Source: a virus
IMG/VR virus record: IMGVR_UViG_3300029220_000112
Strand: one strand, 5' to 3'
DNA: 64,000 nt
In this document: one piece after another, positions 13,647 to 57,468 of the stretch
Numbering within the stretch: position 1 is the first letter of the stretch
Layout of the letters: every line of letters begins with the position of its first letter
Translations under genes and position numbers: made by a program
The notes under the pieces: generated by a model
Told to the model about the DNA's origin: nothing
The model's input: the letters and a program-made list of their open reading frames with translations, nothing else
Databases searched by the model: none

Positions 13647-14099
13647 ATGGTAAACACTATACAGAATGATTATGTCATGCAGGCAAATGAGTTTTCAGAA
13701 CGAAACGGAATTGAAATTAAAATCACTTTTAAGGAGCGAAATTCAAATCCGATGTGGGAGGAAAATTATTTGCGAAACTGCTATTCGGTTTATATCCGAA
13801 ACACAAACAGCGGAGCGGTTATGCGCGTGACATTTTGGGATTCCATATATAACACAACACACAATATCACGCCGACTTGCTACGACATTCTCGCGTGTCT
13901 GACGAAGTATGACCCCGGTGACTATGAGGATTTTTGTTCGGAATTTGGGTATGAAACCGAAACCGAAAACAAATTCGGCAGACTAACGCGAAATCCGAAC
14001 GCTTATAAGATTTGGAAGGCGTGTTGTCACGAATGGGAAGGAGTAAAGCGCGTATTCGGAGAAGATGAAATACTCGAAGAATTAAAGGAAATAAACTAA
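13647..14099 (+). CDS. hypothetical protein (150 aa)
   Basis: ATG preceded by TCAGAAAGGAAT. Confidence 0.5.
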   Translation: MVNTIQNDYVMQANEFSERNGIEIKITFKERNSNPMWEENYLRNCYSVYIRNTNSGAVMRVTFWDSIYNTTHNITPTCYDILACLTKYDPGDYEDFCSEFGYETETENKFGRLTRNPNAYKIWKACCHEWEGVKRVFGEDEILEELKEIN

Positions 14100-14419
14100 A
14101 GAAAATCACTTCGGAAATTGGTAATGAAATTATATTCCCGAAGTGTTTCTATTCTCAAAACATAATCTAAACACTACAAAATCGAAACGAAAATGAAAGG
14201 AGCGAATATTTTACTATTTCATACGAAAAGTTTGTAAAGGGAGTGATATGGAAAGTCGGATTTGAAACGAAAATCCGTTTTGAAAACGACGGCGAAAAGT
14301 ATACGGCATACATAACGGGCGGAATTATTATCTACGGAAATAGCATATCCGCTCTTGTATTGGTGCGCTGGGGCGACGGTCATTCGGCGCGAATAAAATT
14401 AGAGGAGGAAAGGAAATCA

Positions 14420-14599
14420 TGAGCTATAGTACCTATGGGGTCGAAGTTGAAAAGCAAAACGGTTTGGTAATCGGAAAACATTTCGACAATCTCGATGATG
14501 CAATATGTGTAGCCGAACGGGCTGTATATGAGCGCGGCTGCGTGTGGTCGTGCGTATATATGCCTAACGGCGATATTTATGTTGAGTATGAGGCGTGAG
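14420..14599 (+). CDS. hypothetical small protein (59 aa)
   Basis: GGAGGAAAGGAAATC then ATG; sequence MSYSTYGVEVEKQNG... Below the ORF-track cutoff. Confidence 0.4.
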
Positions 14600-14676
14600 C
14601 CGAGTATAGCTTTAACTAATACGAGACGTAAATCAAAATCAAAAATGAAATTAAATTCTGAAAGGAAAATGAAATT

Positions 14677-15507
14677 ATGTCACTTGCACTTGTTAACAAC
14701 GCGAACGAAACTTATGACACCCGCGCTCTTTACATCGAAACAATTTTGCGGAACGTGCCGGAAATCGGCGGGCTGAAATTTGCGGAGATACCGGTTGATC
14801 TGCTGAGTGTTCCCGCGACATATCAGCGCCCGCAGCACGGACACGAAAAGGAAATCGCTAAGCAGTGGAATAAGAAGAAGGCGGGCGCGCTTGTGGTTAG
14901 CTATCGAGACGGACAGCTCTATGTTATTGACGGACAGCACAGGCTTATAGCGGCGCGAATGGTTGGCGAGCAGACAATGCCGTGTCAGATTTATGAGGGA
15001 CTGAGCGAAGCGGAAGAGGCTTTAATTTTCGGAAAGCAGGACGAAAACAAAATCAAATTGAAAACTATAGAGAAAATCTACGCTTTGTTCATCGGCGGTG
15101 ACGCAAAGGCAATAAAGCTCAAGCAGATATGCGACGACTATGGCGTGGTGCTTTTCCCGCAGGACAGCAAGGAAACGAAACCAATGCTTACCGGTCTGCG
15201 CGTGACTCTAACTGCACTCAATGCCTACGGAGAGGACTGCGTGAAATGGATTTTCGATACGATTAAGAAATCGGGTTGGCATCTTGTTCCGGGTGCGTAT
15301 TGTGAAGCGGATATAAATTCACTTCGCAATCTGTATGTCGCTCACAGAAACGAAATCGATAAGGTTCAGGATATCGTTATCAACATTTACAAGCGAACAA
15401 ACTACGACCATATTCAGTCGCTGGCAACCGTGCAGTACCCGGCGAGAACCAAAATCGCATCTCTGACGGCTCTGCTCGAAGCGGCTGTTGAAGAAAATGT
15501 AGCGTAA
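14677..15507 (+). CDS. ParB-like nuclease domain protein
   Basis: LYVIDGQHRLIAARMVG is the ParB/Srx DGQHR motif. Confidence 0.65.
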   Translation: MSLALVNNANETYDTRALYIETILRNVPEIGGLKFAEIPVDLLSVPATYQRPQHGHEKEIAKQWNKKKAGALVVSYRDGQLYVIDGQHRLIAARMVGEQTMPCQIYEGLSEAEEALIFGKQDENKIKLKTIEKIYALFIGGDAKAIKLKQICDDYGVVLFPQDSKETKPMLTGLRVTLTALNAYGEDCVKWIFDTIKKSGWHLVPGAYCEADINSLRNLYVAHRNEIDKVQDIVINIYKRTNYDHIQSLATVQYPARTKIASLTALLEAAVEENVA

Positions 15508-15615
15508 AATTTTAAAAGATTTTGGTAAATAACCGAAGTCGTGATATAAGATAGAGCCGCAGTGAAAGGAAAACCAAACTCGGCTGCTAAATTTAAAATC
15601 AGAAAGGAAATGAAA

Positions 15616-15825
15616 ATGGAAATCAGAGAGGAAACGAAAGACTGGATAGATTTTAGCGAAATACGCTGCGGAGATGTGTTTCGTACCGAGGACGACGATT
15701 ACTATATGAGGGTAAGCGGGTCAGCAAAGTACAACGCTGTTAGAGTTGGTACTGGGCAGTTAGCCTGTTTTGGCGGCGAATTGGTGAGTCCAGTTCACAA
15801 CGCGAAAATGGTGGTTAATTTCTGA
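15616..15825 (+). CDS. hypothetical small protein
   Basis: TCAGAAAGGAAATGAAA then ATG. Confidence 0.45.
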   Translation: MEIREETKDWIDFSEIRCGDVFRTEDDDYYMRVSGSAKYNAVRVGTGQLACFGGELVSPVHNAKMVVNF

Positions 15826-15837
15826 AAGGAGATCAAA

Positions 15838-16032
15838 ATGAAAATCGAAATCAAAACCGGGAACGCTGCTTTCCATGACTGTGACGCGGAAAATGAATAT
15901 GCCGACTACTATGCCACGGCGGCTGAGCTTGACCGAATTTTCGGGCAAATAAGCAGAGCTGTAGCCGAAGGGCGAACAGACGGCAAGGTGATAGACATCA
16001 ACGGAAACATATGCGGAGAGTGGAAAATCTGA
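15838..16032 (+). CDS. hypothetical small protein
   Basis: TGAAAGGAGATCAAA then ATG. Confidence 0.45.
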   Translation: MKIEIKTGNAAFHDCDAENEYADYYATAAELDRIFGQISRAVAEGRTDGKVIDINGNICGEWKI

Positions 16033-16033
16033 A

Positions 16034-16243
16034 ATGAAAATGATTTTTGTTGTGGTTGTCACTGCCGAAAACGGAAAGTATTTCGCCTTCGCCGACACGA
16101 TAGCGACGGGTAATAACTTAATCGCCATACTTAAAAGATATAATGCTGATATATGTCATTTGTGTGAGAGCCGTATAGAGGCGGAGGAACTGGCGCGAAA
16201 ATGGAATGAGTCATATAGGCAAAACGGTACAAACTTATTTTAA
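16034..16243 (+). CDS. hypothetical small protein
   Basis: Tightly coupled to the upstream gene. Confidence 0.4.
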   Translation: MKMIFVVVVTAENGKYFAFADTIATGNNLIAILKRYNADICHLCESRIEAEELARKWNESYRQNGTNLF

Positions 16244-16261
16244 ATCAGAAAGGGAATCAAA

Positions 16262-26323: not shown

Positions 26324-26719
26324 ATGAAAGGAGAAATTTGTAAAATGGGATTTTTGGGTTCATTTCTTGGTCTGATTGGTGCTTCGGCGGTGTTTGTTGG
26401 AGCCGATGTTAAAGAGCGTTGGGACGAAATAGATAGAGAGCGGCAGCGCATTGCGGCAAATCCCGCACCGCCTGCGGAGATGAGGGGAAATTTAAGAGAT
26501 AAATATGAATCTGAATGGCACAGAGGTGATAACACTCATTTCCCGGAAGAATATCTTCCTGCTCTTGAGAGCGATCCAGAGGTACTTTACTGGTGGATTG
26601 AGCTTCTTGCAGAGCGTGAGATAAGGCGTCAGGGTTATCGCGGTTATCCTATCAGTATTCAGGGCAATTTCAATCGAGTGTATAATGCTTGGAAGGAGCG
26701 TCAGAATTGGGTCAGATAA
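26324..26719 (+). CDS. small membrane protein (N-terminal TM helix), operonic with recombinase
   Basis: GAAAGGAGAAAT RBS. MGFLGSFLGLIGASAVFVGA hydrophobic segment. Stop overlaps the downstream start. Confidence 0.5.
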   Translation: MKGEICKMGFLGSFLGLIGASAVFVGADVKERWDEIDRERQRIAANPAPPAEMRGNLRDKYESEWHRGDNTHFPEEYLPALESDPEVLYWWIELLAEREIRRQGYRGYPISIQGNFNRVYNAWKERQNWVR

Positions 26720-27657
26720 CCAGTGTTGATGTTAATAAAGACATACTTATTGATAGTCTGAAAGCCCAGAACGCAAGACTAAAAAAGCTTCTCCGCGAAA
26801 CAGCAGAAGAGCGAGACAGATATAAATCCTTGTGGGAAACAAATCGGATTCAAAATGAATTTTCAGAAAAGGAGCGAAAAGCAAATCGGCGATTAGAACA
26901 AGAGAAAAAACAAGAGCGGTTGCTGTCCGGTGTAAAATCGGACGGCGTTCCGATAGCTCATGCGGCGGATTCGATTCGTTCCTATGATGAAATGTGTGTT
27001 GTACTGGATAAGCTCAAAAACACAGGACGAATGGGAATACGAAACTGGGCTATGTTCCGTTGCGGCATTTGCTTCGGTCTTAGAGCAAGCGACCTCGTTA
27101 AATTAAAATGGGGTTGGATCATGGACGACGACGGCGAGTTCAGAGACCGTATACCCGTAGTCGAGAGCAAGACATCTAAAATCAATCGGTGTTTCATTTC
27201 AGATGCGATAAAGGAAACGCTTACAGAATATCGCAAGTGGCTCGGCGGACGCAACTGTTCTCCCGATGATTACATCTTCTCGAAGAACAACGGCGGGAGA
27301 CTACAGGAGCAAAGCTATTCACGATATCTCAAAAGCGCGGGAAAGGAAGCGGGGTTGCCGATACACATCTCGTCTCACACCATGAGGAAATCATTTGCCA
27401 ATATAGTGCTGTGTTGTCACGACGGCGGTGCGAATGATTATGCTATGAGAGACTTACAGGGTATGCTCGGACATTCAGATGTAAGAATTACGATGAGCTA
27501 CCTCAAAGACACAATCCTCAGATACGACGAAGCGAGAAAGGCGGTGTCAGATTTCGTCCTCGGAAAGACAGACGTAAACGAGCTGGTTACTTCAAAACAG
27601 GTCTCCAATAATGAAATTTACGAGCTTTGCAAAGAAATGTTTGAAAAAGTTGCGTAA
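26707..27657 (+). CDS. second tyrosine site-specific recombinase (integrase/Xer/Cre-like catalytic domain with coiled-coil N-terminus)
   Basis: LRASDLVKL (Arg I), HTMRKSFA (His-x-x-Arg), LGHSDVRITMSYL (His and Tyr). TTG start after GGAAGGAG; the ORF track has TTG at 26689. Confidence 0.75.
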   Translation: MGQITSVDVNKDILIDSLKAQNARLKKLLRETAEERDRYKSLWETNRIQNEFSEKERKANRRLEQEKKQERLLSGVKSDGVPIAHAADSIRSYDEMCVVLDKLKNTGRMGIRNWAMFRCGICFGLRASDLVKLKWGWIMDDDGEFRDRIPVVESKTSKINRCFISDAIKETLTEYRKWLGGRNCSPDDYIFSKNNGGRLQEQSYSRYLKSAGKEAGLPIHISSHTMRKSFANIVLCCHDGGANDYAMRDLQGMLGHSDVRITMSYLKDTILRYDEARKAVSDFVLGKTDVNELVTSKQVSNNEIYELCKEMFEKVA

Positions 27658-31559: not shown

Positions 31560-32456
31560 ATGATATTTAATATTGTAATGATGGTTATAGCTGCGGTTCT
31601 TGCGGCTGTAGGTGTGATTTTAGCTTACAAAGAGATAGAATACGGAGACGACATTCCGGTGGCAATTCCTATAGTAAGTTTTGTGTTGGCGATATGTCTG
31701 TTTGTACTCTCAGCTTCAGCGGCTATTGTGCCGACCGGATATACGGGAGTGAGGACGACGCTCGGTCAGATAAGCGACCAGCCTGTACATAGTGGTTTCA
31801 ACTGGAAAGTGCCCATTGTTCAGAGCATAAAGCTCGTAAATAACAAACAGCAGGACGCACAGTTCGGCGGCGACAAAATCTGGTCGGAGACTGAAAGCAG
31901 AACAGCAATTTACTACGCAGACGTGACCGTTACTTATCAGATTAACCCCGACAGGTCGGCGTGGATCTACGCTAATGTCTCGGACTACAAGAACTCTCTG
32001 GTGTCCGAAAACATAGTTGCTTCGGCTATTAAATCCAGTAGTAAAGTGCTTAGCGATACCGACGCGACGAACCGCTCAATAGTCGAGCCTCTTATAGCTA
32101 AGAATCTACAGGCTTCAATAGACGAGAAGTACGGCGAGGATGTTGTTGCAATCCTTAAAGTGACGGTAAACGACATTGACTTTGACGAGTCATATCAGGC
32201 AGCGATAGCATCAAAACAACAGGCTCAGCTTGCGGCAGAGCAGCAGGAAATCGAAAATAAAAAGGCTGTGGATAAGGCAAAGGCAGACGCAGAGGCGAAG
32301 CTTATAAAATCTAAGGCTGAAGCTGAAGCAAATGACACTCTTGAGAAGTCCCTGACGGATAAGATTCTTAAAGAAAAATACATAGAGAAGTGGGACGGAA
32401 AGCTCCCGAGTGTGATGACCGGCGACGATGGAAGTTCGATAATGATTCAAAAGTAA
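31560..32456 (+). CDS. SPFH/band-7 (prohibitin/HflKC-like) membrane protein
   Basis: N-terminal TM helices, then VPTGYTGVRTTLGQIS and a C-terminal A/K/E-rich coiled coil typical of SPFH proteins. Confidence 0.6.
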   Translation: MIFNIVMMVIAAVLAAVGVILAYKEIEYGDDIPVAIPIVSFVLAICLFVLSASAAIVPTGYTGVRTTLGQISDQPVHSGFNWKVPIVQSIKLVNNKQQDAQFGGDKIWSETESRTAIYYADVTVTYQINPDRSAWIYANVSDYKNSLVSENIVASAIKSSSKVLSDTDATNRSIVEPLIAKNLQASIDEKYGEDVVAILKVTVNDIDFDESYQAAIASKQQAQLAAEQQEIENKKAVDKAKADAEAKLIKSKAEAEANDTLEKSLTDKILKEKYIEKWDGKLPSVMTGDDGSSIMIQK

Positions 32457-32467
32457 GGAGGGAATGA

Positions 32468-34702
32468 ATGAGGGTATTACTGTTGTTGCGCGGTAGTGCT
32501 GGGTGTGGTAAGTCAACATGGATTGAACAAAATGGACTTGAACCCTATACACTATCCGCCGACGAGATAAGGTTGATGTACGCTTCGCCCACTTTAAATG
32601 TTTGTGGCGAAGAGTGTATAAGTCAGTCGAATGACACTAAGGTCTGGAAGACACTCTTTCAGATTCTTGAGTCTCGAATGGAGCGAGGAGAGTTCACCGT
32701 TATTGACGCGACGAACTCCAAAACTTCCGAGATGAAGCGCTATGCGGAACTTTGTAACCGTTATCGCTATAGGATTTATTGTGTAGACTTTACCGACATT
32801 CCTATTGAGGAAACCAAAAGGCGAAATAAAATGCGACCTATAGTCAAACAGGTTCCTGAAACGGCAATCGACAATATGTACGCTCGTTTCGCTACTCAGA
32901 AAATTCCGTCGGGGATAACCATTATAAAACCGGATGAGCTTTCAAAGGTGTGGTTCAAACCTATGGATGTTTCGGAATACGATGCGGTTCACTTTGTCGG
33001 AGATGTTCATGGCTGCTATACGGCACTCAAAGAAGCAATCGGGGATGTCGCCGAGAAACCTAATGAGCTGTTTGTGTTCTGCGGAGACTATACTGACAGA
33101 GGAATTGAAAATGCAGAGGTAGTAAGGGAGCTTCTTCGCATCTATAAAGAACCGAATGTATATCTCATAGAGGGAAATCATGAGAAACATATGTGGGTTT
33201 GGGCTAATGACGGAACTACCGGGTCAAAAGAGTTTGAGATGCATACAAGAGCTCAGCTTGAAAGCGCTTCTTTTACTAAAAAGGATGTTCGCAAACTTTA
33301 CAGAAGTTTCGGGCAGTGCGCCTATTATATATATCGTGGCAAAACTATATTGGCTACACACGGTGGTCTTAGTACGTTGCCTAACAATCTCACGCTGGTG
33401 GCTACCGACCAAATGATTAAAGGCTCTGGGAATTATAGCGACGCCGATGTTGTTGATCAGTCTTTCTGTGAAAATACTGACGCTTATCAGGTGCATGGGC
33501 ACAGAAATCTTAAAGGAAATCCCATTCAGGCTTGCAGAGCCTTCAATCTTGAGGGGAATGTTGAGTTTGGAGGCTCTATAAGAGTTGTTAGTTTTGTTGG
33601 CAATGAGATAAAGGTGAGCGAGTTTAAAAACAATATATATTTACCGACTGAAGAGAGAATTGATTATACTGCAAAGATAAAAAAGAACGAGTCTGTTGCA
33701 GATGCTATTCTGGCTCTGAGAGGTAATAAGCAGGTAGTCGAGAAGCAGTTCGGTGATATCTCGTCTTTTAACTTCTCAAAACAGGCTTTCTTTGACAAGA
33801 TATGGGATGAGCAGACGATTAGGGCACGAGGTTTGTATATCAACATTCCCAAAGGAAAAATAGTCGCAAGAGGCTATACAAAGTTCTTTAATGTAAACGA
33901 GCGACCGGAGACAAAGTTTGATATGTTACAGCACAAGCTTAAGTTTCCCGTAACTGCGTGTGTTAAAGAAAACGGGTTTCTCGGGTTAGTTTCATATAAC
34001 GAGATAGATGATTCGCTGTTTGTTACAACGAAATCTAATCCGGATGGTAATTATGCATCGTGGCTTAAAGAGATGATAGATAAGAAAATCCCTGTTGATA
34101 CACAGCAGAAAATGAAAGAATTTTCAAGAGAGAACAATGTAACATTTGTGTTTGAGTGTATTGATATGCAGAGAGATCCACACATAATTGATTATCCGGA
34201 AAATCATCTTTTCTTGCTTGATATTGTTTACAACGAGTTGAAGTTCAAAAAGTTCAGTTATGACGAGCTTATAAGTGTTGCAGACAAGTTCGGGCTCGAA
34301 CACAAAGAGCGAGCTGTCGTAATTAATGATTGGCAGACATTCTTCGACTGGTATTATACGGTCACAGCACCTGACTATTTGTATAACAACAGGCATATAG
34401 AGGGATTTGTCGTCGAAGATGCTGACGGTTATATGGTTAAGCTTAAACTTGCTTACTATAATCTCTGGAAATACCTTCGCGGCGTTTCCTACAAGGTTCT
34501 TAGACGCGGACATCTTGATGGCAAGGAAACTTCGTCTCTTACAACGTCATTAATGAATCAGTATTATGCGTGGCTTAAACGAATTTACGCAGAAACAGAG
34601 GATAAAGAGTCGATACCGCGTGATATCTGCTCGCTTAGAAAACTATTCTACGCATCGGACGAGGGAAGAAATTTTACAAAGGAGGAAAACAATAATGATT
34701 GA
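32468..34702 (+). CDS. Pnkp-like polynucleotide kinase-phosphatase with C-terminal ligase-like nucleotidyltransferase domain (RNA/tRNA repair enzyme)
   Basis: N-terminal P-loop LLLRGSAGCGKST. Central calcineurin-like phosphoesterase motifs GDVHG, GDYTDRG, GNHE, THGG, HGHRN. C-terminal region with KENG (a lysine-nucleotidyltransferase motif I-like KxNG). Same domain order as bacterial Pnkp. Confidence 0.65.
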   Translation: MRVLLLLRGSAGCGKSTWIEQNGLEPYTLSADEIRLMYASPTLNVCGEECISQSNDTKVWKTLFQILESRMERGEFTVIDATNSKTSEMKRYAELCNRYRYRIYCVDFTDIPIEETKRRNKMRPIVKQVPETAIDNMYARFATQKIPSGITIIKPDELSKVWFKPMDVSEYDAVHFVGDVHGCYTALKEAIGDVAEKPNELFVFCGDYTDRGIENAEVVRELLRIYKEPNVYLIEGNHEKHMWVWANDGTTGSKEFEMHTRAQLESASFTKKDVRKLYRSFGQCAYYIYRGKTILATHGGLSTLPNNLTLVATDQMIKGSGNYSDADVVDQSFCENTDAYQVHGHRNLKGNPIQACRAFNLEGNVEFGGSIRVVSFVGNEIKVSEFKNNIYLPTEERIDYTAKIKKNESVADAILALRGNKQVVEKQFGDISSFNFSKQAFFDKIWDEQTIRARGLYINIPKGKIVARGYTKFFNVNERPETKFDMLQHKLKFPVTACVKENGFLGLVSYNEIDDSLFVTTKSNPDGNYASWLKEMIDKKIPVDTQQKMKEFSRENNVTFVFECIDMQRDPHIIDYPENHLFLLDIVYNELKFKKFSYDELISVADKFGLEHKERAVVINDWQTFFDWYYTVTAPDYLYNNRHIEGFVVEDADGYMVKLKLAYYNLWKYLRGVSYKVLRRGHLDGKETSSLTTSLMNQYYAWLKRIYAETEDKESIPRDICSLRKLFYASDEGRNFTKEENNND

Positions 34703-34799
34703 CGCATTTCTTTTTAACATTCTTAATCTGATTGGTCTTTATGGTAAAGCAATTCTTGTGTTCATCGAGAAAATACTTGGACTGTAAGGTGGTGAAACT

Positions 34800-35792
34800 A
34801 TGCAGGGCAAAAACATTAAAGTGCACCTTAAAAGAAAAATAGGTGATTGGGTGTCGAGTGTTGATGACGAAGCCATAAAAGATGCTATTAGCGACAATGC
34901 TATTATAACTGGCGGTGCGATTGTGTCACTTCTTCAAGACGAGAAACCGCATGATTATGACGTATATTTCAGAAACGAAAAAGCGTTAATACAGGTGGCG
35001 GAATATTATGTCAAAAAATATACTGAATTTGTCAAGGATAAACTTGATGATAAAGGCGTAAAACCTACTGTACAGAGGTGCTATTGGAACAAATCGTCAG
35101 AGAGATGGACTGTATTAAAAGAAAACGATAAGAAACGAGACGATGAGAGGGTGCGTGTTTTCGTTCGTAGTGTCGGAGCAGTTGGCGTTGACTATATTCC
35201 TCACGAGGAAACTGATGCCCAATATCGCAGAGCGATGGCGTTAATAGGCAACGAGTTGAAGAAGAGCACTAAAATTTCGGTTGACGACTTACCGCCATAC
35301 AGTCCGATATTTATTACAAATAATGCTATTACACTAAAAAATGGAGTTCAGATTGTACTTAGATTTTACGGAGAACCCGAAGAGATACATAAGAACTATG
35401 ATTTCGTCCATTGTACTTCATATTGGACGAGCTGGAATAACGCATTAGTTATGCCGCCGAGAGCTCTTGAGGCTATTATTAACAAAGAACTCTATTACAT
35501 CGGTAGTAAATATCCGCTTTGCTCGGTAATTCGTGCGCGAAAGTTTTTAAAGCGCGGATGGAATATAAATGCAGGACAATATGTCAAAATGATACTACAG
35601 CTTAACGCTCTCGATCTTACTAATCTTCATGTTTTTGAAGAACAGCTTATCGGGGTTGATAGCGCGTATTTTGGCGCTGTTATTAATAAGGTAAACACAC
35701 TACGAGAGGAAGGACAAAAGGTTGATGAGACTTATCTAATAAACCTCATTAACGAAGTGTTTGATGAAGGCGTTGAGGAGAATTACGGTTAA
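34800..35792 (+). CDS. polymerase-beta superfamily nucleotidyltransferase, CCA-adding/poly(A)-polymerase head-domain-like
   Basis: ITGGAIVSLLQDEKPHDYDVYF aligns to the class II tRNA nucleotidyltransferase motif GGAVRDLLLGRPPKDIDI. Confidence 0.5.
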   Translation: MQGKNIKVHLKRKIGDWVSSVDDEAIKDAISDNAIITGGAIVSLLQDEKPHDYDVYFRNEKALIQVAEYYVKKYTEFVKDKLDDKGVKPTVQRCYWNKSSERWTVLKENDKKRDDERVRVFVRSVGAVGVDYIPHEETDAQYRRAMALIGNELKKSTKISVDDLPPYSPIFITNNAITLKNGVQIVLRFYGEPEEIHKNYDFVHCTSYWTSWNNALVMPPRALEAIINKELYYIGSKYPLCSVIRARKFLKRGWNINAGQYVKMILQLNALDLTNLHVFEEQLIGVDSAYFGAVINKVNTLREEGQKVDETYLINLINEVFDEGVEENYG

Positions 35793-35837
35793 AATCCGAA
35801 ATGGTTTTAATAATAAAAATGAAAAGGAGTAAAACAA

Positions 35838-36779
35838 ATGGGATTTCAGAAAGCAAAAAGAGAACAGATTTGGCTTAAGGTGCTACTCGCGGGTCCAAGT
35901 GGAAGTGGTAAGACTTTTTCGGCGCTGAGACTGGCGAAGGGCATAGCCGCCGCTGCGGGTGGTAGAGTTGCCGCAATCGACACGGAGAATGGTCGTATAA
36001 GATATTACGCAAATGAGTTCGACTTCGACGACCTTCAGCTTCAGGCTCCGTATACTCCCGAGAAATACATTCAGGCTATTGAGGATGCGGTTGACGGCGG
36101 ATATAAGGCTCTTGTTATCGACAGCATAACTCATGAGTGGGATTACTGTGTTGATTATCACGACAAGATGCCGGGCAATTCTTATACCAACTGGGGTAAG
36201 GTAACTCCGAGACATGACGCCTTTATGGAAAAGGTTCTTCAGTCTCCCATACATATTATATCCACCGTTAGAGGCAAGGACACTTATGTTCTTGAGGATA
36301 GAAACGGAAAACAGGTTCCTAAGAAAGTCGGTATGGGCTACAAACAGAGAGATAACACGGAGTACAACTACACTCTAACCTTTAATATCGCGCAGGACAC
36401 CCACATAGCGGAAGCTCAGAAAGATAATACACACCTCTTCGAGGGCAGATACGATGTGCTGACCGAGCGCGACGGCAAGGCTCTGTTTGACTGGGCAAAC
36501 GCTGGCGACGCTCCCGCTCCGAAGCCGGTTAATAAATCCGCCGCAGAGGAAGAGCCGGTTGCAGATGTTCCTGTGGCTGAGAAGTCTAAGATAGAAATGG
36601 CTATAGACAGCATTAACAAACTCGCTAAAGAACTTGCAGACAGCGGCGTGGCGAAGAAAACGATTTCAGACACCATCAAGTCAGTTTCGGGTAGTGCAAA
36701 CTATAATAAGATAACTGACTTTGAGGTAGCGACAGATGTTTATAAGGAGCTTGTAGCCCTTAAAAATAAGGAGGATTAA
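35838..36779 (+). CDS. Sak4-like (AAA_24 / RecA-fold) phage recombination ATPase
   Basis: KVLLAGPSGSGKTFSAL Walker A, ALVIDSITH Walker B. Position next to the SSB gene. Confidence 0.6.
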   Translation: MGFQKAKREQIWLKVLLAGPSGSGKTFSALRLAKGIAAAAGGRVAAIDTENGRIRYYANEFDFDDLQLQAPYTPEKYIQAIEDAVDGGYKALVIDSITHEWDYCVDYHDKMPGNSYTNWGKVTPRHDAFMEKVLQSPIHIISTVRGKDTYVLEDRNGKQVPKKVGMGYKQRDNTEYNYTLTFNIAQDTHIAEAQKDNTHLFEGRYDVLTERDGKALFDWANAGDAPAPKPVNKSAAEEEPVADVPVAEKSKIEMAIDSINKLAKELADSGVAKKTISDTIKSVSGSANYNKITDFEVATDVYKELVALKNKED

Positions 36780-36785
36780 TTATTT

Positions 36786-37202
36786 ATGGTAGAGAATAAT
36801 GCAACAATCATCGGTAGACTTACGGGCGACGTAGAAATAAAAACCGCCGGTAACACAGATAACAGAGTGGCGAATTTCACTGTGGCTGTCAATCGTCCCA
36901 AGAGAAAGGACGCAGAAGACGAAGCAGATTTCATTCGTGTCAGGGCGTGGAACTCAACCGCCGACTTTATCGGAAAGTATTTCGGCAAGGGTTCTAAGAT
37001 AGGTGTCAGAGGCTCCATTCGTACAGACTCGTATAAGAACAAGGACGGCGAGAACAGAAGTGTGACATATGTCCTTGTTGATGAGGTCTGCTTTATCGAG
37101 TCTAAGTCAACTTCCAACGGCGGCTCTGAACCGAAAGCGAAGGCGAGCACAAAGAAAGCAAATGTTGATGTCACTACTGACGACGACGATCTGCCGTTCT
37201 GA
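36786..37202 (+). CDS. ssb: single-stranded DNA-binding protein
   Basis: OB-fold-like N-terminus (IGRLTGDVEIKTAGN...ANFTVAVNR) and classic acidic tail DDDDLPF. Confidence 0.85.
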   Translation: MVENNATIIGRLTGDVEIKTAGNTDNRVANFTVAVNRPKRKDAEDEADFIRVRAWNSTADFIGKYFGKGSKIGVRGSIRTDSYKNKDGENRSVTYVLVDEVCFIESKSTSNGGSEPKAKASTKKANVDVTTDDDDLPF

Positions 37203-37963
37203 TGAGACATATGGAAAAATACAGCTTTTCTAAGTTGTCTTCTTTCCATCAGTGTCCGTTGCAATATTGGTATACGTATATAGCTCGTGAGCAGGGAGAA
37301 AATAATGCTTTCGCACAGTACGGAAGTTTCGTTCACTCCCTGCTCGAACGCTGGGGCAAAGATGAACTTGCCGAGTATGAGTTATTGGGTGAATATGAAG
37401 ATAAGTTCTTCGACCGTGTAACTCAGGAATTTCCACCCAACAAATACACCGACTTGAGTAAGAAATATTATGACGACGGCGTACAGTTTTTGTCAAACTT
37501 CGAGGGCGTGGATGCGAAAGAGATACTCGGTATAGAAGAACACTTCGAGGAGCTAATTGCGGCGGCGGACGGAAGAGACAGCTTCATCATTCAGGGCTTT
37601 ATAGACCTTATATACATAGACTCGGCGGGACGGTTGGTAGTTCACGACTGGAAATCAAAAGCAAAATTTAAAAACCCCGCCGAGCAGAAGAAGTATGCGA
37701 GACAGTTATACATATATTCAATTTATGTCAAGCTGAGATATGGTAAGTTTCCCGATCTACTGAGATTCCATATGTTCCGTAATAGCAAAGATGTGGATAT
37801 CAAGTTCAACATTGACGACTATTACGAAGCAATAAACTGGATGCAGGAGACGGTAAAGGAAATCCGGGATTGCGGTGAGTTTGAAAGCCGACCGGATGAT
37901 TTTTATTGCCAATATCTATGCGACATGAGACTAAAATGCTGTGGGGAGACGGCGACGAAGTAA
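37202..37963 (+). CDS. PD-(D/E)xK nuclease, Cas4/RecB-like with C-terminal Cys cluster
   Basis: N-terminal QCPLQYWY, GFIDLIY...DWK core, C-terminal C...C...CC pattern as in Cas4/AddB Fe-S nucleases. Confidence 0.55.
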   Translation: MRHMEKYSFSKLSSFHQCPLQYWYTYIAREQGENNAFAQYGSFVHSLLERWGKDELAEYELLGEYEDKFFDRVTQEFPPNKYTDLSKKYYDDGVQFLSNFEGVDAKEILGIEEHFEELIAAADGRDSFIIQGFIDLIYIDSAGRLVVHDWKSKAKFKNPAEQKKYARQLYIYSIYVKLRYGKFPDLLRFHMFRNSKDVDIKFNIDDYYEAINWMQETVKEIRDCGEFESRPDDFYCQYLCDMRLKCCGETATK

Positions 37964-38045: not shown

Positions 38046-39926
38046 ATGGTGGAACTGCTCGGTATTACGAATTGGAACCCCTCAAGAAGAGTCGGGTGTT
38101 GCCCGAACCCCGAACACATAGACAAGAATCCGTCGTGCTCGTATAACCCCAAGACTTATTCTTTTCATTGCTTTGCGTGTGGCTTTACCTGTGACATCAT
38201 AGATGCCTATATCACATCCAAGAAGTGTACTTTTCTTGAAGCGTGTGAGATGCTTTTTGATGAGGCGGGTATACAGTATTCATTCGCAGAGCGCGGAACA
38301 AAAGACAGGGCATACAAATACCCCAAGCCCAAGTACGCCGACAACAAAGAAGAGGTGTATAAGTATTGGCGGAAGAGAAAAATATCACCTGAAACAATAG
38401 ATTATCTGAATATACAGCAGGACGAAAAAGGAAACACCTTGTTCCAGTATTTCGACCTGAATGACGTGCTCGTAATGTGTAAAGTCCGCAAGTCACGCGC
38501 AGTGCCTCACGGTGAACTTAAGATATGGTATCTCGAAAACAGCGATTGCTGTAATGTCCTTTACAACATCAACAAAATAAATACCACTCAGCCGTTGATA
38601 ATATGTACCGGCGAAGGCGACTGTGCCGCACTCATTGAGTGCGGTTTTTACAACTCCGTAAGCATTAACGGCGGCGACCAGAATACGAAGTGGATTGAAG
38701 AGTGCTGGGATTTTCTGCAAGAGTTTGACGAAATCATCCTCGTCCACGACAACGACAGAAGCGGCGAGGAATACATAAAGAAAGTTGCTCCGAGGTTGGG
38801 CGAATATCGCGTCAAGGTTGCAGAAATCCCGTTGTCTCACACCAATGCAGACGGCGAGAAAGTTCGCATAAAAGACATAAACGAACTGCTGTTCTTTGAG
38901 GGGAAAGAGGCGGTCAGAGATGTAATCAATAACGCGAAAGAGTCTGAGATTCCCGCGATAGTCGATTACACCGAAGTAAAGAGATTTGATATGTCGGATG
39001 TCGAGGGGTTTACAACGGGCTTTGAAGATTTGGACGCTGCGCTCGGCAAGAACTATATGGGTTCTACAACGCTCATAACCGGAATAGCTTCTGCGGGTAA
39101 AAGCTCTCTGATATCGACGCTTGTATGCCGATCTATAGAGCAGGGTTATCCTTGTTTTATATACAGCGGAGAGCTTTCAAACCCGTCGTTGAAAAACTGG
39201 ATTGACTTTGTTCACGCAGGACAGCGGGGGCTTGAAGAAGTGCAGGGCGAACACGGCAAGTATTACAGAATCAAGTCTGATGTGTACAGAAAAATCAATT
39301 CCTATTATCGCGGACAGCTTTACTTCTACAAAGATTCGTTCTCACATAAGACTGAAGACCTCCTCGCGACGGCGGAGAGTGCGGTAAGAAGGCTTGGAGT
39401 AAAAACGGTATTCTTCGACAATCTCACATCTGTGGATCTGTCGTGCGACGATAACTCAAAGTGGACTAAGCAGGAAGATTTTATAAGACAAATCATTGAC
39501 TTTGCAAAACGATGGAATGTAGCTTGCTTTGTGGTTATTCACCCGAAGAAAATGGAGCAGGTACGCAAGATGAGCATCTTTGACCTACAGGGCGTTGCTG
39601 CCGCTGCCAACCTTGCACAGCGTGTTATATCGCTGTACCGAGTATCACCTAAAGATAAAAAGGGTGTTGTTGGTAGAAACGGCAAGTTTATTACGCCGCC
39701 CATGAAAGGCAGTGTTGTCCTTGAAGTTCTCAAAGACCGATATGGTAGTGCGAACAACAAGGAATTTGCTCTGTACTACGACAACCCGAGTAAGAGATTC
39801 TACACAACGCCGCAGAATCTTGCCCATGCTTATGGGTGGGAAGTCGCCGACGGCGTGACAAGTGCGGAGTTGCCTTACGGCACTCCTGCTTATGACGAAG
39901 ATATGGACGAGGAGGTGTTTGGTTGA
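38046..39926 (+). CDS. bifunctional primase-helicase (DnaG-like zinc-binding/TOPRIM primase fused to DnaB-like helicase)
   Basis: CHC2 zinc finger CPNPEHIDKNPSCSYNPKTYSFHCFACGFTCDIID. TOPRIM ICTGEGDCAAL...DNDRSGEE. Walker A GIASAGKSSLIST in the C-terminal half. Confidence 0.8.
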   Translation: MVELLGITNWNPSRRVGCCPNPEHIDKNPSCSYNPKTYSFHCFACGFTCDIIDAYITSKKCTFLEACEMLFDEAGIQYSFAERGTKDRAYKYPKPKYADNKEEVYKYWRKRKISPETIDYLNIQQDEKGNTLFQYFDLNDVLVMCKVRKSRAVPHGELKIWYLENSDCCNVLYNINKINTTQPLIICTGEGDCAALIECGFYNSVSINGGDQNTKWIEECWDFLQEFDEIILVHDNDRSGEEYIKKVAPRLGEYRVKVAEIPLSHTNADGEKVRIKDINELLFFEGKEAVRDVINNAKESEIPAIVDYTEVKRFDMSDVEGFTTGFEDLDAALGKNYMGSTTLITGIASAGKSSLISTLVCRSIEQGYPCFIYSGELSNPSLKNWIDFVHAGQRGLEEVQGEHGKYYRIKSDVYRKINSYYRGQLYFYKDSFSHKTEDLLATAESAVRRLGVKTVFFDNLTSVDLSCDDNSKWTKQEDFIRQIIDFAKRWNVACFVVIHPKKMEQVRKMSIFDLQGVAAAANLAQRVISLYRVSPKDKKGVVGRNGKFITPPMKGSVVLEVLKDRYGSANNKEFALYYDNPSKRFYTTPQNLAHAYGWEVADGVTSAELPYGTPAYDEDMDEEVFG

Positions 39927-42900
39927 CAGACAACTTAGTAATTTATCATCTACATAGTGATAACAGTCTGCTGGACAGTTGCACAGGCTACAAGCTGTAT
40001 ATCGACAGAGCCGCTGAACTTGGACAACCAGCTATAGCGTTCAGCGAACACGGAAAACCACTCAACTGGGTCAAGAAAAAGATGTATTGTGATGAAAAAG
40101 GAATTAAATACATCCACGGCGTTGAGATATACCTCACTGAAAGCCTTAATGAAAGGGTCAGAGACAACTACCATACGGTGCTTATAGCTCGAAACGAACA
40201 GGGTGTGAAAGAACTCAACCTTGCAGTGTCGAAATCATGTGATAAAGACCACTTTTATTATGTAAATAGATTGAGTTTTGACGAGTTTCTGAAGCTGTCC
40301 AACAACATTATCACGACGAGCGCGTGCCTTGCAAGTCCTCTAAATAAGCTTCCCGTAGACCATCCGATGTACGAGAGTCTTATTAAGCGATATGACTTCC
40401 TTGAGATTCAGGCTCACGATTGTCAGGAGCAGAGAGACTTTAATGTGCATTTGGCAGAGCTTGCGAAGAAGTACAGTAAGCCGCTGATAGCAGGAACCGA
40501 TACTCACTCGCTTGACAAATATAAAGCTGAGTGCCGCAAGATATTGCTCAAATATAAAAACAAGTCCTACGGTGACGAAGATACATACGACCTCACATAT
40601 AAGTCCCGTGAAGAGTTGGACGCTGCATTTGCAAGGCAGGGTGTTCTACCTCCCGAGCTTTACAGACAGGCTATGGACAACACGCTTGTAATGGCTGATA
40701 TGGTAGAGCCGTTCGAGCTTGATACATCTATTAAATACCCGATACTGTACGGGTCGGCTGAAGAGGATAGCCGAATAGAAGCTGAGCGTGTTGACCGAAT
40801 GTTCAAAGAGAAGCTTGAGACGGGGGTTATACCGCCCGAACAGGAAGAGGGTTTTAGGTCAGCGTTAGTGGAAGAAAGACGAGTTTTTGAGAAGCTTGGT
40901 ATGAGTGGGTTTATGCTCTGTATGAGCGAGTTGATATGTTGGTGCAAAGAAAATGATGTACCGGTTGGTCCCGGGCGAGGTTCTGCGGGTGGTTCGAGAA
41001 CCGCTTTTGTTACAGATATAATTGACTGCAATCCGGAGCAGTGGCATACAGTATTCTCTCGTTTTGCAAACGAAGATAGGAAAGAAATTGGGGACATTGA
41101 CGTCGATGTTAAGAAGACCGACCAACCCAAAGTCTTTAATTACATATATAAGCGTTTCGGGGCTCGTAAGACGTCGAGAGTCCCGTCGTTCGGAACTTTA
41201 CAGAAAAGCGCTGTTATAAAATGTATCGGCAACGCTCTCGCAAAATATTGGGAAGAAGAGAGAACCGGCAAACCTTTTAGACCCGCTGATAAATTTTCGC
41301 CAGACAATCCGTATTCTCTGTCTAATGTAGATAAGATTGCAAGTCAGTTCGCGGCGGATGAGGGCGATACAAGGACTAAATTTCCTAAACTTTTTTACTA
41401 TTACGACGGGCTTTTAGACACGAAAGTTTCTCAGTCGATTCATGCTGCGGGTATAGTAATCAGCCCGTTAACCCTCGATGATACATATGGGGTCTTCGAT
41501 AAGGATGGCGACCCGTGCCTTTTTATAGATATGGACGAGTTGCACGAAGTCGGAGCGGCCAAGTTTGACTTTCTCCCGCTTAGTAATGTTGGAATTATTA
41601 GCGATACCTGTAAACTCGCGGGTATACATTATCCGCGTATGAATGAGATTAATTTTGACGACCAAGCAGTATGGAAAGATATGCTAAGAAGTCCCGTAGG
41701 AATTTTTCAGATGGAATCATCTTTTGCGTTCTCGCTGTTAAAGACGTTTGAGCCCCATTCAATTTTTGATATGGCTTTGGTGACAGCAGCTATTCGACCG
41801 TCGGGAGCTTCGTATAGAGATAGGCTAATGAAAAAAATTCCTAATAAAAACCCGTCAAAGGAAATAGACGAGCTCCTTAAGAATAACTTGGGGTATCTAA
41901 TATTTCAGGAGGATATTATAGCGTTTCTTCAGCAAATGTGTGGGTTGTCAGGTAGCGAGGCTGATAATGTTAGACGAGCTATAGGGCGTAAAGACGCCGA
42001 GAGGTTAGAAAAAGCAATACCAAAGATACTTAACGGGTATTGTGAGCATTCGAGTAAACCAAGAAAAAAAGCAGAAGAGGATGCGAAGGCTTTCTTAAAA
42101 GTAATCGAGGACGCATCTGAGTACAGTTTTGGTTACAACCACGCTGTAGAATATTGTCTTACGGGGTATTTGTGTGCATATCTTCGCAAATATTATCCCT
42201 GTGAATTTATTACGACTTATCTGAATAGAGCTGCCAAAGAAGAGGATGTCGTCAACGGTACTACGCTTGCCGCCGAATATGGATTTAAGGTAACACCTCC
42301 TCGTTTCGGAGCGTCAAGAGATGTCTTCTATTTTAACAAGGATAAAAAAGAAATAGCAAAGGGGTTGACGAGTGTTAAGTATATGTCCGCTGCTCTTGCA
42401 AATGAGCTGTATGACATATACGACGAGGTAAAAGGAAAATCGTTTATGGAAGTTCTCAAAGCTCTCTCGAAGACCTCTATTGATACGCGACAGCTCGACA
42501 TCCTAATTAAAATTGGCTACTTTGAAGAGTTTGGAAATATGGGAGAGCTGTTGAAGCTTGTACAGGTGTACTCGTTCTTTAAGAACGGAACTGCAAAATC
42601 TGTTAGCAAGTCCAAGGTTGTAGGTTTCCTTGCGGATATCATTTCAGATTATGCAACAGATAAAGGCGTTAAGGGGAATGAGCTTAAGTCTTACACAATA
42701 ACCGACATGGACGGGCTTTTAGCTGCCTGTGAAGAGCAAATCAGAAAATCAGATGTTCCGGACTTAACCCTTAAAGTCAAAATACAGAATAGTATCGAGT
42801 ATCTTGGCTATGTTGGTATTCAGACCGGACTGCCCGAAGACAGGAGAAAGCTTTTGATAACAGAAGTATTCCCCATGCGTGGACAGAACGGTGTGCCGTG

Positions 42901-43072
42901 GGGATATAAAGTGAATACGCAGAGTCTGGGTACAGGTAAGCAGTCGTCGTTGACGATACCGGCGAGAATATATGCCGAGAATCAGGTAGCGAAGGGTGAT
43001 ATCGTGTATGCCGAAAACTGCTACAAGAATCCGAAAGGATATTGGTATCTTAATTCCTATAGAAAGATATGA
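39923..43072 (+). CDS. dnaE: DNA polymerase III alpha subunit (DnaE-type, PHP domain)
   Basis: PHP motif YHLHSDNSLLDS...FSEHG. Pol III core motif GPGRGSAGGS. 1049 aa. Confidence 0.85.
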   Translation: MTDNLVIYHLHSDNSLLDSCTGYKLYIDRAAELGQPAIAFSEHGKPLNWVKKKMYCDEKGIKYIHGVEIYLTESLNERVRDNYHTVLIARNEQGVKELNLAVSKSCDKDHFYYVNRLSFDEFLKLSNNIITTSACLASPLNKLPVDHPMYESLIKRYDFLEIQAHDCQEQRDFNVHLAELAKKYSKPLIAGTDTHSLDKYKAECRKILLKYKNKSYGDEDTYDLTYKSREELDAAFARQGVLPPELYRQAMDNTLVMADMVEPFELDTSIKYPILYGSAEEDSRIEAERVDRMFKEKLETGVIPPEQEEGFRSALVEERRVFEKLGMSGFMLCMSELICWCKENDVPVGPGRGSAGGSRTAFVTDIIDCNPEQWHTVFSRFANEDRKEIGDIDVDVKKTDQPKVFNYIYKRFGARKTSRVPSFGTLQKSAVIKCIGNALAKYWEEERTGKPFRPADKFSPDNPYSLSNVDKIASQFAADEGDTRTKFPKLFYYYDGLLDTKVSQSIHAAGIVISPLTLDDTYGVFDKDGDPCLFIDMDELHEVGAAKFDFLPLSNVGIISDTCKLAGIHYPRMNEINFDDQAVWKDMLRSPVGIFQMESSFAFSLLKTFEPHSIFDMALVTAAIRPSGASYRDRLMKKIPNKNPSKEIDELLKNNLGYLIFQEDIIAFLQQMCGLSGSEADNVRRAIGRKDAERLEKAIPKILNGYCEHSSKPRKKAEEDAKAFLKVIEDASEYSFGYNHAVEYCLTGYLCAYLRKYYPCEFITTYLNRAAKEEDVVNGTTLAAEYGFKVTPPRFGASRDVFYFNKDKKEIAKGLTSVKYMSAALANELYDIYDEVKGKSFMEVLKALSKTSIDTRQLDILIKIGYFEEFGNMGELLKLVQVYSFFKNGTAKSVSKSKVVGFLADIISDYATDKGVKGNELKSYTITDMDGLLAACEEQIRKSDVPDLTLKVKIQNSIEYLGYVGIQTGLPEDRRKLLITEVFPMRGQNGVPWGYKVNTQSLGTGKQSSLTIPARIYAENQVAKGDIVYAENCYKNPKGYWYLNSYRKI

Positions 43073-51086: not shown

Positions 51087-52919
51087 ATGGGAAAATACAA
51101 TAACTACGAAAAGTATGCGAAGTATATTAACTTTATAAATAGATATAAAGGAGCTACAAACGCTTCGACTGGAAGCGAAGTAGACTCTAATGCAAATGTG
51201 GAAAGTAAAAATGTCGCCACTATGCAGGGCGAACTAAGCAAAAAAGACATAATCGGAACCAACAGGCTTCTGATGATAAATAAACTGACTTCTATGTACG
51301 ATAAAGAACTCGCGGAAGAATATATCCGACAGCTCGAAAGTCATGAGATATATAAACACGACGAGACAAGTATAATGCCGTACTGCGTGTCTATCACTAT
51401 GTACCCATTCCTTTTTGAGGGGCTTAAGTCAATCGGCGGACTTTCGGATCCGCCCCGCAATCTTGATTCGTTTTGTGGCTCATTTATTAACCTCGTTTTC
51501 GCTATAGCGTCTCAGTTCGCGGGAGCTGTTTCAACCCCGGAGTTTCTAACATATCTTGACTACTTTATCAGAAAAGAGTATGGAGATGATTATTATCGTC
51601 ATGCGGATAAAATTGTCACGACTGGGAGTAGGGAGAAGAGTATAAGCAAGGTTATAGAGGATAAATTTAGTCAGGTTGTCTATTCTTTAAATCAGCCCGC
51701 GGCAGCGAGAAACTTTCAGTCAGTATTTTGGAACATCGCCTATTTCGATCACAATTATTTTAATGGCATTTTTCATGACTTCATTTTCCCGGACGAGACT
51801 GAGCCTAAGTGGGAGAGCGTTAGCTGGCTACAGAAGAGGTTTATGAAATGGTTTAATGCTGAGAGACTTAAGAAGCCGCTCACATTCCCGGTTGAAACAG
51901 TAAACCTTCTTGATGATGGAAGTGCTTATACCGATAAAGAGTGGTTCGACTTTGTGGCTGAAATGTACGCGGAGGGGCACTCGTTCTTTGTATATCGTAG
52001 CGGTAGTGTTGATTCGCTCTCGTCATGTTGCCGGGTTCGCAATGAGCTACAGGATAACACCTTCTCCTTTACGCTCGGTGCAGGTGGTGTGTCTACGGGG
52101 TCAAAGGGCGTTATAACTATCAATATTAACAGACTCGTGCAGAACGCGACCAAGCAGGGTATTGATCTTTCGGAAGCAGTAACAACTCAGGTAGAAAAAA
52201 TTCACTGCTACTTAAAGGCGTTTAATGAGATTATGAAAGATAATTTCAAAGCAAAGTTGCTTCCTGTCTACGACGCGGGGTATATTTCGTTGGACAAACA
52301 GTTTTTAACCATAGGCATTAATGGATTTGTTGAAGGAGCAGAGTTTTTAGGCATAGAAATTAGTCCAAACGATAGGTATTTTGAGTATGGCGAAAAGATT
52401 CTGAAGCCTATATATGATAGCAACAAGAAAGAAAGAACTGATGAATTGATGTGGAATACAGAATTTGTACCAGCGGAAAACTTAGGAGTTAAAAATGCCA
52501 AGTGGGATAGGGCGGACGGACTGTTTGTTCCCCGTGATTGTTACAATAGTTACTTTTATATAGTAGAGGACGAAGCTACGAATACTGTTGACAAGTTTAT
52601 ACTGCATGGTAGCAAACTCACAAAATATTTGGACGGCGGGTCAGCACTTCATGCTAACTTGAACGAACATTTAACTAAGGAGCAGTATAAAACTCTACTG
52701 TTGGATGCCGTTAAAACCGGTTGCTCATACTTCACTTTTAACATTCCTAATACAATATGTAATGTGTGTGGGCATATCAGCAAACGCCGTCTGGATCATT
52801 GCGTAGAGTGCGGAAGTCATGACGTAGACTATTTGACTCGTGTCATAGGCTATCTTAAGAGAGTGTCTGCCTTTTCAGAGGAGAGACAAAAAGAGGCGGC
52901 AAAAAGATACTATGAATAA
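51087..52919 (+). CDS. nrdD: anaerobic ribonucleoside-triphosphate reductase
   Basis: C-terminal Zn site CNVCGH...CVECGS and glycyl-radical motif RVIGYL. 610 aa. Confidence 0.85.
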   Translation: MGKYNNYEKYAKYINFINRYKGATNASTGSEVDSNANVESKNVATMQGELSKKDIIGTNRLLMINKLTSMYDKELAEEYIRQLESHEIYKHDETSIMPYCVSITMYPFLFEGLKSIGGLSDPPRNLDSFCGSFINLVFAIASQFAGAVSTPEFLTYLDYFIRKEYGDDYYRHADKIVTTGSREKSISKVIEDKFSQVVYSLNQPAAARNFQSVFWNIAYFDHNYFNGIFHDFIFPDETEPKWESVSWLQKRFMKWFNAERLKKPLTFPVETVNLLDDGSAYTDKEWFDFVAEMYAEGHSFFVYRSGSVDSLSSCCRVRNELQDNTFSFTLGAGGVSTGSKGVITININRLVQNATKQGIDLSEAVTTQVEKIHCYLKAFNEIMKDNFKAKLLPVYDAGYISLDKQFLTIGINGFVEGAEFLGIEISPNDRYFEYGEKILKPIYDSNKKERTDELMWNTEFVPAENLGVKNAKWDRADGLFVPRDCYNSYFYIVEDEATNTVDKFILHGSKLTKYLDGGSALHANLNEHLTKEQYKTLLLDAVKTGCSYFTFNIPNTICNVCGHISKRRLDHCVECGSHDVDYLTRVIGYLKRVSAFSEERQKEAAKRYYE

Positions 52920-57436: not shown

Positions 57437-57468
57437 GTTTAATCCTCTCTTTCTATGCCATCTCAAAA

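Follow-up and report, generated by a model that had tools for sequence, protein, structure and literature searches.

A kinase-phosphatase-RNA ligase fusion and a Gad2-family nucleotidyltransferase as adjacent, probably unrelated accessory genes of a gut phage

Two adjacent genes on the same strand of a 64,000-nucleotide stretch of viral DNA (IMG/VR record IMGVR_UViG_3300029220_000112; hereafter the window) encode proteins of 744 and 330 amino acids, which an earlier note on the sequence had read as a two-gene tRNA-repair module: a Pnkp-like kinase-phosphatase-ligase followed by a CCA-adding-like nucleotidyltransferase (NTase). Both genes are members of already known families, and a paired module is not supported. 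The explanation that we favour, and regard as fairly likely, is that they are two unrelated accessory cassettes lying side by side in a cassette-exchange hot spot, within the early same-strand array of a gut phage. The first encodes a kinase-phosphatase-ligase fusion and the second a Gad2-like NTase; how their domains are built, whether the motifs are intact, which families they belong to and that they are distributed independently were all read directly from the data.

32468-34702, plus strand: gene for the 744-aa kinase-phosphatase-ligase (from the list of open reading frames)
34800-35792, plus strand: gene for the 330-aa Gad2-family nucleotidyltransferase, a cassette of ~1.0 kb with TAA/AATCC at both bounds

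Linkage was tested both ways, with loci gathered from the 330-aa protein and loci gathered from the fusion. Among near-identical phages (93-100% identity in the two genes), eight carry both genes, 14 the fusion only and two the Gad2-like gene only. When 79 IMG/VR loci were collected from the 330-aa protein, the fusion was carried by the eight near-identical phages only, and in the ~70 more distant Gad2-like loci none of the three fusion domains occurs within 6 kb. Adding 71 bacterial-genome loci brought the set to 144 distinct Gad2-like loci. The complete fusion is found in none of these (0/144); one weak kinase match, one phosphoesterase match and one weak ligase match fall at three different loci. 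In the other direction, the fusion protein used alone as query found near-identical phages only, and an alignment query was used to reach distant loci. The near-identical set numbers 22 (93-99% identity; eight with the Gad2-like gene and 14 without), and none of the distant loci (0/63) has a Gad2-like gene within 8 kb. Unbiased clustering of the neighbours of Gad2-like genes gave no recurrent cluster with an RNA-repair Pfam match among the annotated ones. The two genes have been gained and lost independently, and their adjacency is incidental; with independent gain and loss in near-identical phages and no co-occurrence in distant loci, the proposed two-gene module does not hold.

Comparison of the near-identical genomes locates both cassettes between constant flanks.

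31560-32456, plus strand: SPFH/Band 7 membrane protein (PF01145, 6.5e-20), the constant left flank, present in all near-identical phages
32455-32461, plus strand: AAGGAGG repeat (ribosome-binding site, RBS), left bound of the fusion cassette; the same heptamer recurs at 34679
34679-34685, plus strand: AAGGAGG repeat, right bound of the fusion cassette and RBS of a small open reading frame (ORF)
34695-34787, plus strand: conserved 30-aa hydrophobic ORF (MIDAFLFNILNLIGLYGKAILVFIEKILGL) between the cassettes, with its own AAGGAGG RBS
34785-34792 and 35790-35797: TAA/AATCC junctions around the Gad2-like cassette
35838-37963, plus strand: recombination module, the right flank, constant in most relatives (Pfam; locus comparison), comprising the next three genes
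35838-36779, plus strand: AAA_24 ATPase
36786-37202, plus strand: SSB (a 136-aa homologue in relative L084 is annotated PF00436 SSB)
37202-37963, plus strand: PD-(D/E)XK nuclease

In L010 and L014 (97-98% identical) the fusion is wholly absent, and the SPFH gene is followed by the small ORF and then by the Gad2-like gene; the segment that these phages lack runs exactly from one AAGGAGG copy to the other (2,224 bp). Conversely, 12 of the 14 phages without the Gad2-like gene show a clean absence, with AAA_24 beginning ~125 bp after the ligase gene, and the other two (L088 and L093) have a different recombination module in the slot. The 30-aa ORF, which starts with an ATG overlapping the stop of the 744-aa gene, is kept when either cassette is missing (phages L089 and L010) and is possibly a small membrane peptide. 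Because the cassette bounds coincide with RBS and stop signals, gene exchange by microhomology at these sites is suggested. A promoter and terminator scan gave no excess above chance and nothing between the two genes, which are probably co-transcribed in this phage.

Several features of the flanks deserve mention in their own right. The SPFH/Band 7 protein directly upstream of the cassettes has an N-terminal hydrophobic segment and is unusual as a phage gene. In L088 (10361-11511), and in the same slot of L093, proteins of 162 and 221 aa replace the Gad2-like, AAA_24 and PD-(D/E)XK genes; the 221-aa protein has the look of a single-strand annealing protein and retains the C-terminal ~65 residues of AAA_24. 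The part in common presumably serves for docking, perhaps to SSB. L093 also carries, between a methyltransferase-like gene and the SPFH gene (5833-6936, plus strand), a 367-aa ORF with the look of a TnpB/IS605 OrfB-type protein, and the gap between these two genes is variable in several other relatives.

The 744-aa protein is, as the earlier note had proposed, a single-polypeptide kinase-phosphatase-ligase, with three Pfam domains in order. Both ORFs are there, as is every motif that the note had quoted (the P-loop, the phosphoesterase set and KENG), and an alignment of 20 members shows the catalytic residues to be invariant.

32468-32917, plus strand: domain 1 (aa 1-150), P-loop polynucleotide 5'-kinase (PF13671 AAA_33, structure match)
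32960-33652, plus strand: domain 2 (aa 165-395), binuclear metallophosphoesterase of the lambda-phosphatase/Clostridium thermocellum Pnkp (CthPnkp) type (PF00149)
33695-34702, plus strand: domain 3 (aa 410-744 and stop codon), ATP-dependent RNA ligase of the Rnl1/Trl1 type (PF09511)

Pfam places AAA_33 at residues 4-142 (7e-19), Metallophos at residues 175-345 (5e-17) and PF09511 (RNA_lig_T4_1) at residues 453-664 (6e-44; 150.9 bits against a gathering cut-off of 28.3). The alignment shows no variation in the kinase P-loop and residues D32, R35, R119 and R123, in all five metal-ligand motifs of the phosphoesterase, or in ligase motifs I (K500ENG), III (FVFE563), IV (E645GFVV) and V (K658xK660). 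For structural comparison, an AF2 model of the protein (pLDDT 76.5) was searched against the PDB with Foldseek. The top structural match of the kinase domain is the CthPnkp kinase (4jt2/4gp6; TM 0.71-0.76, 26% identity), which is also its sequence match in the PDB (4gp6; phmmer, 5e-5), and the phosphoesterase is closest to lambda phosphatase (1g5b; phmmer 1.3e-7, Foldseek TM 0.68). The ligase domain matches that of fungal Trl1 (9qw7; phmmer 4e-16; Foldseek 2e-15, TM 0.62-0.67), with T4 Rnl1 (9do4; Foldseek 2.6e-10) ranking after it; the CthPnkp ligase domain is absent among the 50 Foldseek matches listed.

Equivalog models agree with this division. The bacterial Pnkp model TIGR04075 reaches 64.6 bits where its cut-off requires 750 and covers residues 4-301 only, and the T4 RnlA model TIGR02308 scores 28.8 bits against a cut-off of 242.25. 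The term Pnkp-like thus fits the kinase and the phosphoesterase and not the ligase: from sequence and model together, the first two modules are predicted to be Pnkp-like and the sealing module to be an Rnl1/Trl1-type ligase. Bacterial Pnkp was rejected as the identity of the whole protein, with TIGR04075 far below its cut-off, PF09511 at the C-terminus and no Hen1. The earlier note had also remarked that no Hen1-type methyltransferase follows, and the neighbouring genes and a Pfam scan confirm that there is no Hen1-like gene nearby. Downstream lie the 30-aa ORF, the Gad2-like gene, AAA_24, SSB and PD-(D/E)XK, and the upstream 209-aa protein has a sub-threshold Dam match alone (E 0.079; 13.1 bits against a cut-off of 28.1). 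The ligase that Hen1 assists is that of the Pnkp type, and no Hen1 is expected beside a gene whose ligase is of another type.

The protein therefore combines features of several known repair systems. With the bacterial Pnkp of the Pnkp-Hen1 system (C. thermocellum) it has in common the domain order of kinase, binuclear metallophosphoesterase and ligase, a kinase whose closest solved relative is that of Pnkp (4jt2, TM 0.76) and a lambda-phosphatase-like phosphoesterase; it differs in its PF09511 Rnl1/Trl1 ligase, in lacking a Hen1 partner and in being phage-borne. The chemistry expected of it (5'-kinase, 3'-end healing and Rnl1-family sealing) is the same as that of T4 Pnkp with Rnl1 and of fungal Trl1. 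T4, however, uses two proteins and a HAD-type phosphatase, where the 744-aa protein is one chain with a calcineurin-type phosphoesterase. Trl1, like our protein, is a single trifunctional polypeptide, and its ligase is the best match of the third domain in sequence and structure, but its order is ligase-kinase-CPD and its healing enzyme is a 2H phosphodiesterase, in contrast to the kinase-phosphatase-ligase order found here.

No architectural difference separates the protein from the phage family phrog_8238 (annotated RNA ligase), which it matches at full length (9e-221). Members of this family, among them Twort ORF008 and proteins of K-like phages, of SPbetaL8, L2 and L3 and of Goe11 and Goe12, have the same three domains and are 38-44% identical over 95-99% of their length; the 744-aa protein is a gut-phage member. 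More than 3,300 relatives were found at E ≤ 1e-10, the best 120 of which all measure ~740 aa and share its three-domain layout. A relative is carried by at least 113 isolated phage records (≥80% coverage), including Staphylococcus phage Twort, K-like phages and SPbeta-like Bacillus phages, where it is usually annotated as RNA ligase or polynucleotide kinase. As far as the fusion is concerned, then, the arrangement is not the unusual one it had been taken for. No biochemical study or description of a kinase-phosphatase-ligase phage fusion was found in the searchable literature, and the family, though large and annotated, is apparently uncharacterised.

T4 Pnkp and Rnl1 repair tRNA-Lys cleaved by PrrC. 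The 744-aa enzyme would act as an autonomous heal-and-seal system of the same general kind: its kinase would phosphorylate 5'-OH RNA ends, its metallophosphoesterase would remove 2',3'-cyclic or 3'-phosphate ends, and its ligase, adenylylated on K500, would then seal the break, restoring RNAs, tRNAs among them, that host anticodon nucleases or HEPN-type RNases have cut. Heal-and-seal RNA repair against host RNases, which the earlier note had put forward, remains the best reading of the predicted domains, invariant motifs and structure matches. Loci of distant relatives were consulted for context. At 15 of 35 scanned fusion loci there are tRNA genes within 8 kb, and arrays of up to 13 tRNA genes lie beside distant fusion homologues (L151 65-1736, L164 1975-5326, L154 10308-10555 and L109 10519-10611); in L154, tRNAs for Leu, Leu and Lys begin ~125 bp past the end of the fusion gene. 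Taken as raw occurrences, these arrays would fit a tRNA-centred role. At 2166-2258 in L156 and 1672-1763 in L161, two large phage contigs, ARAGORN reports a 'tRNA-???' with a two-base anticodon by a tRNA-Ser(tga); if not artefacts, they may be tRNAs of an unusual or suppressor-like kind.

The proximity of related fusions to phage tRNA arrays, and the fact that the Trl1 ligases closest to the third domain are tRNA-splicing enzymes, could also be taken to mean that the enzyme serves the phage itself and not counter-defence, for instance by processing or splicing its RNAs or tRNAs or by mending DNA nicks that have 5'-OH and 3'-phosphate ends. We consider this quite improbable. The fusion gene is cleanly missing from the near-identical L010 and L014 and is therefore not needed for core functions, and the window has one tRNA gene only (tRNA-Asn, 29-104). 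Moreover, the neighbours of distant fusions resemble orphan DNA methyltransferases, an HD protein and a PemK/MazF-like gene (a reading of cluster representatives, not Pfam-checked); apparent orphan methyltransferases and a PemK/MazF-like gene are a typical conflict-gene context.

The second gene belongs, on sequence homology, to the Gad2 anti-Gabija family PF26128. The family name comes from a 'PF26128:Gad2' match (E ≤ 1e-5) on a 75%-identical homologue (P0005), and precomputed matches to the same family (PF26128.2) occur on a 99%-identical representative (P0001) and on 120 of 120 homologues among the matches listed. Our own Pfam and NCBIfam scans of the 330-aa protein gave no match at E ≤ 0.1, with a Pfam library that lacks the PF26128 model; a bona fide Gad2 likewise gave no relevant match in this library, for the same reason. 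Direct comparison with SPbetaL6 Gad2 produced two colinear BLASTP segments (5e-8 and 1e-7), and a family profile of the 330-aa protein aligned to Gad2 by hhalign with 97.3% probability (E 1.8e-11). The BLASTP and hhalign alignments span Gad2 residues 16-85 and 86-193 only. The PHROG matches are reciprocal: Gad2 matches phrog 4400 at 8e-27, and the 330-aa protein matches phrog 18122 at 4e-19. A literature search on PF26128 found no papers.

Gad2 (Gabija anti-defence 2) is a 400-aa protein of phage SPbetaL7, in which its knockout leads to full Gabija sensitivity; a Brevibacillus prophage homologue blocks Gabija upon co-expression, and AlphaFold predicts a nucleotidyltransferase domain in Gad2 (bioRxiv 10.1101/2023.05.01.538930). 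According to a review of February 2026, its mechanism is still not elucidated (PMC12904381). The validated Gad2 and the 330-aa protein have a homologous NTase core, with the motifs GGAI..L...DxDxYFR and YDF..C in common, and both are phage or prophage accessory genes. They differ in that the 330-aa protein is without ~180 C-terminal residues, ending ~40 residues past the aligned core, carries an insertion of ~100 aa relative to Gad2 (residues ~83-184, partly of low confidence in the model), and is assigned to phrog 4400 rather than to 18122. By homology to Gad2, its role is probably anti-defence, and would be exerted through a nucleotidyl-transfer reaction of unspecified kind.

What the earlier note had recognised as CCA-adding-like is in part real. 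The 330-aa protein is an NTase of the Pol-beta superfamily with a class II CCA/poly(A) polymerase (PAP)-like head, comprising motif A (GG...D52xD54) and the head/neck fold; head and neck look catalytically intact, and many polar residues are invariant in the family. Only ~170 of its residues align to CCA enzymes, however (~170-185 to targets of 329-517 aa), and judged by size the tRNA-binding body and tail domains are probably lacking. Neither the PF01743 (PolyA_pol) nor the RlaP profile hidden Markov model (HMM) matched the 330-aa protein. In PDB searches, phmmer with the 330-aa protein gave no meaningful match and the family profile found no NTase, and hhalign of the family against the E. 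coli CCA enzyme returned 0.2% probability, aligning only a 21-column GG...DxD motif. The CTP/ATP-selecting EDxxR of motif D is missing as well: EDxxR occurs in at most 2 of 50 family members at any one column of the alignment, and a conserved SKYPLC stands in its place (GSKYPLCS against GEDPLRV in E. coli CCA, a colinear pattern and not a structural superposition). We therefore rejected the CCA-adding identity, in view of the missing PF01743 and EDxxR and the ~170 aligned residues, in favour of the Gad2 family. The fold neighbours of Gad2 are CCA-adding enzymes, poly(A) polymerases and TENT5, but it is without their nucleotide-selecting motif.

An RlaP identity, too, was rejected; there is no HMM match and no conserved genomic association with RNA ligases. 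RlaP was reportedly defined in the RNA repair survey of Burroughs and Aravind in 2016. It is a known 'RNA-ligase-associating' family of phage NTases (PMC7824862). Together with the adjacency, the common strand and the probable co-transcription of the two genes, such precedents lend some appeal to a functional tRNA-repair module in which the fusion heals and seals anticodon-loop breaks while the NTase rebuilds the 3' CCA or replaces excised nucleotides. In its favour, the NTase head/neck fold resembles CCA-adding enzymes, some database records label Gad2-like homologues tRNA nucleotidyltransferase, both Pol-beta NTases (RlaP) and CCA-adding enzymes accompany phage RNA ligases (PMC7824862), and OLD-family nucleases related to GajA are able to cut tRNA (PMC12445682). 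Given the tests of linkage and of CCA-adding identity above, we hold this module to be very improbable indeed.

The genomic company of distant Gad2-like genes points elsewhere. Neighbour contexts were derived by unbiased clustering, with Gad2-like counts given out of the 144 loci. SSB is a neighbour at 49/144, an MBL-fold protein at 34/144 and an ERCC4 nuclease at 17/144; just upstream lie DUF1351 (37/144) or an SMC/AAA_15-type ATPase (32/144), and just downstream the ERF annealing protein (21/144). Gad2-like genes are typically found in phage recombination/replication modules, not with RNA repair genes. The 330-aa NTase might accordingly be an accessory of such a module and no anti-defence protein, and might modify the 3' ends of DNA or RNA, say, or nucleotidylate a recombination protein. 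What speaks for this proposal is that numerous unrelated phages and prophages have the gene embedded beside those for SSB, ERF, DUF1351, SMC-like ATPase, ERCC4 and MBL, that in the window it directly precedes AAA_24, SSB and PD-(D/E)XK, and that many polar residues are invariant, which suggests an active enzyme. The gene is nevertheless dispensable in near-identical phages that retain the same recombination genes, its validated relative Gad2 has an anti-defence phenotype, and early regions often house anti-defence genes too. We thus view a recombination accessory as unlikely, and prefer to see the 330-aa protein as a putative anti-defence gene in a cassette of its own.

Several points weigh against the picture of two unrelated cassettes with these roles. 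The 12 phages with a clean absence of the Gad2-like gene have near-identical genomes, and only a few deletion events may lie behind them. The domain HMMs for testing linkage were made from relatives of ≥60% identity, and Pnk or Rnl genes of other families would escape them. NTases are known to cooperate with phage RNA ligases (RlaP and CCA-adding enzymes), which makes synergy between the two predicted enzymes conceivable here. The 330-aa protein is, furthermore, a distant relative of Gad2, with another PHROG, a missing C-terminus and an insertion, and anti-Gabija activity may not transfer to it; the absence of the C-terminal region in particular makes functional transfer uncertain. For both proteins we infer substrates and mechanism, and for the second also the anti-Gabija role.

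A further idea would connect fold and phenotype. GajA of Gabija is an OLD-family nuclease. P2 OLD, for its part, cuts tRNA anticodon stems (PMC12445682), and it is therefore conceivable that a CCA-enzyme-like Gad2 acts on tRNA or RNA ends. Gad2 proteins might then be template-independent terminal NTases of the class II CCA/PAP lineage that defeat OLD-family defences by modifying 3' ends (of tRNA, other RNA or phage DNA) or by making a nucleotide product, and the two cassettes would possibly be two answers to tRNA or RNA damage within one anti-defence hot spot. We give this proposal little probability.

The rest of the window is in keeping with an integrase-bearing phage that is probably temperate.

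29-104: tRNA-Asn, the single tRNA gene of the window
192-1343, minus strand: integrase (tyrosine), adjoining tRNA-Asn
2434-3414, minus strand: separate calcineurin-like phosphoesterase, 327 aa, near the integrase (PF00149, 2e-9)
26689-27654, plus strand: second tyrosine recombinase, in the middle of the early region
39923-43069, plus strand: DNA Pol III alpha, one 1,049-aa ORF
51087-52916: anaerobic NrdD
56426-57466, minus strand: amidase

The tRNA-Asn and tyrosine integrase at the start of the window are likely an attachment region. In IMG/VR the nearest relatives of the phage are contigs that reach ~95 kb, with a phage size of ~92 kb, and one 75%-identical relative comes from a pig-gut metagenome. 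In L084 (also a 75%-identical relative; 13684-16257), Pol III alpha is in pieces of 391 and 312 aa with DNA between them, an arrangement for which an intron, intein, homing element or frameshift may be responsible. A PADLOC scan of the two proteins and their neighbours gave no matches.

The label 'tRNA nucleotidyltransferase', which some phage records give to Gad2-family genes, is a tempting error that these results put right; in this phage it looked convincing because an RNA ligase gene lies adjacent. The fusion is very common among phages and offers a natural system for RNA repair in one protein, which, from the type of its predicted ligase, should not need Hen1. For Gad2, the fold and the company of recombination modules narrow the hypotheses on its mechanism, and the terminal-NTase proposal, if true, would provide the first mechanistic handle on the family. 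In this phage group the interval from the SPFH gene to AAA_24 is a hot spot of cassette exchange, and thus a useful place to look for more counter-defence genes.

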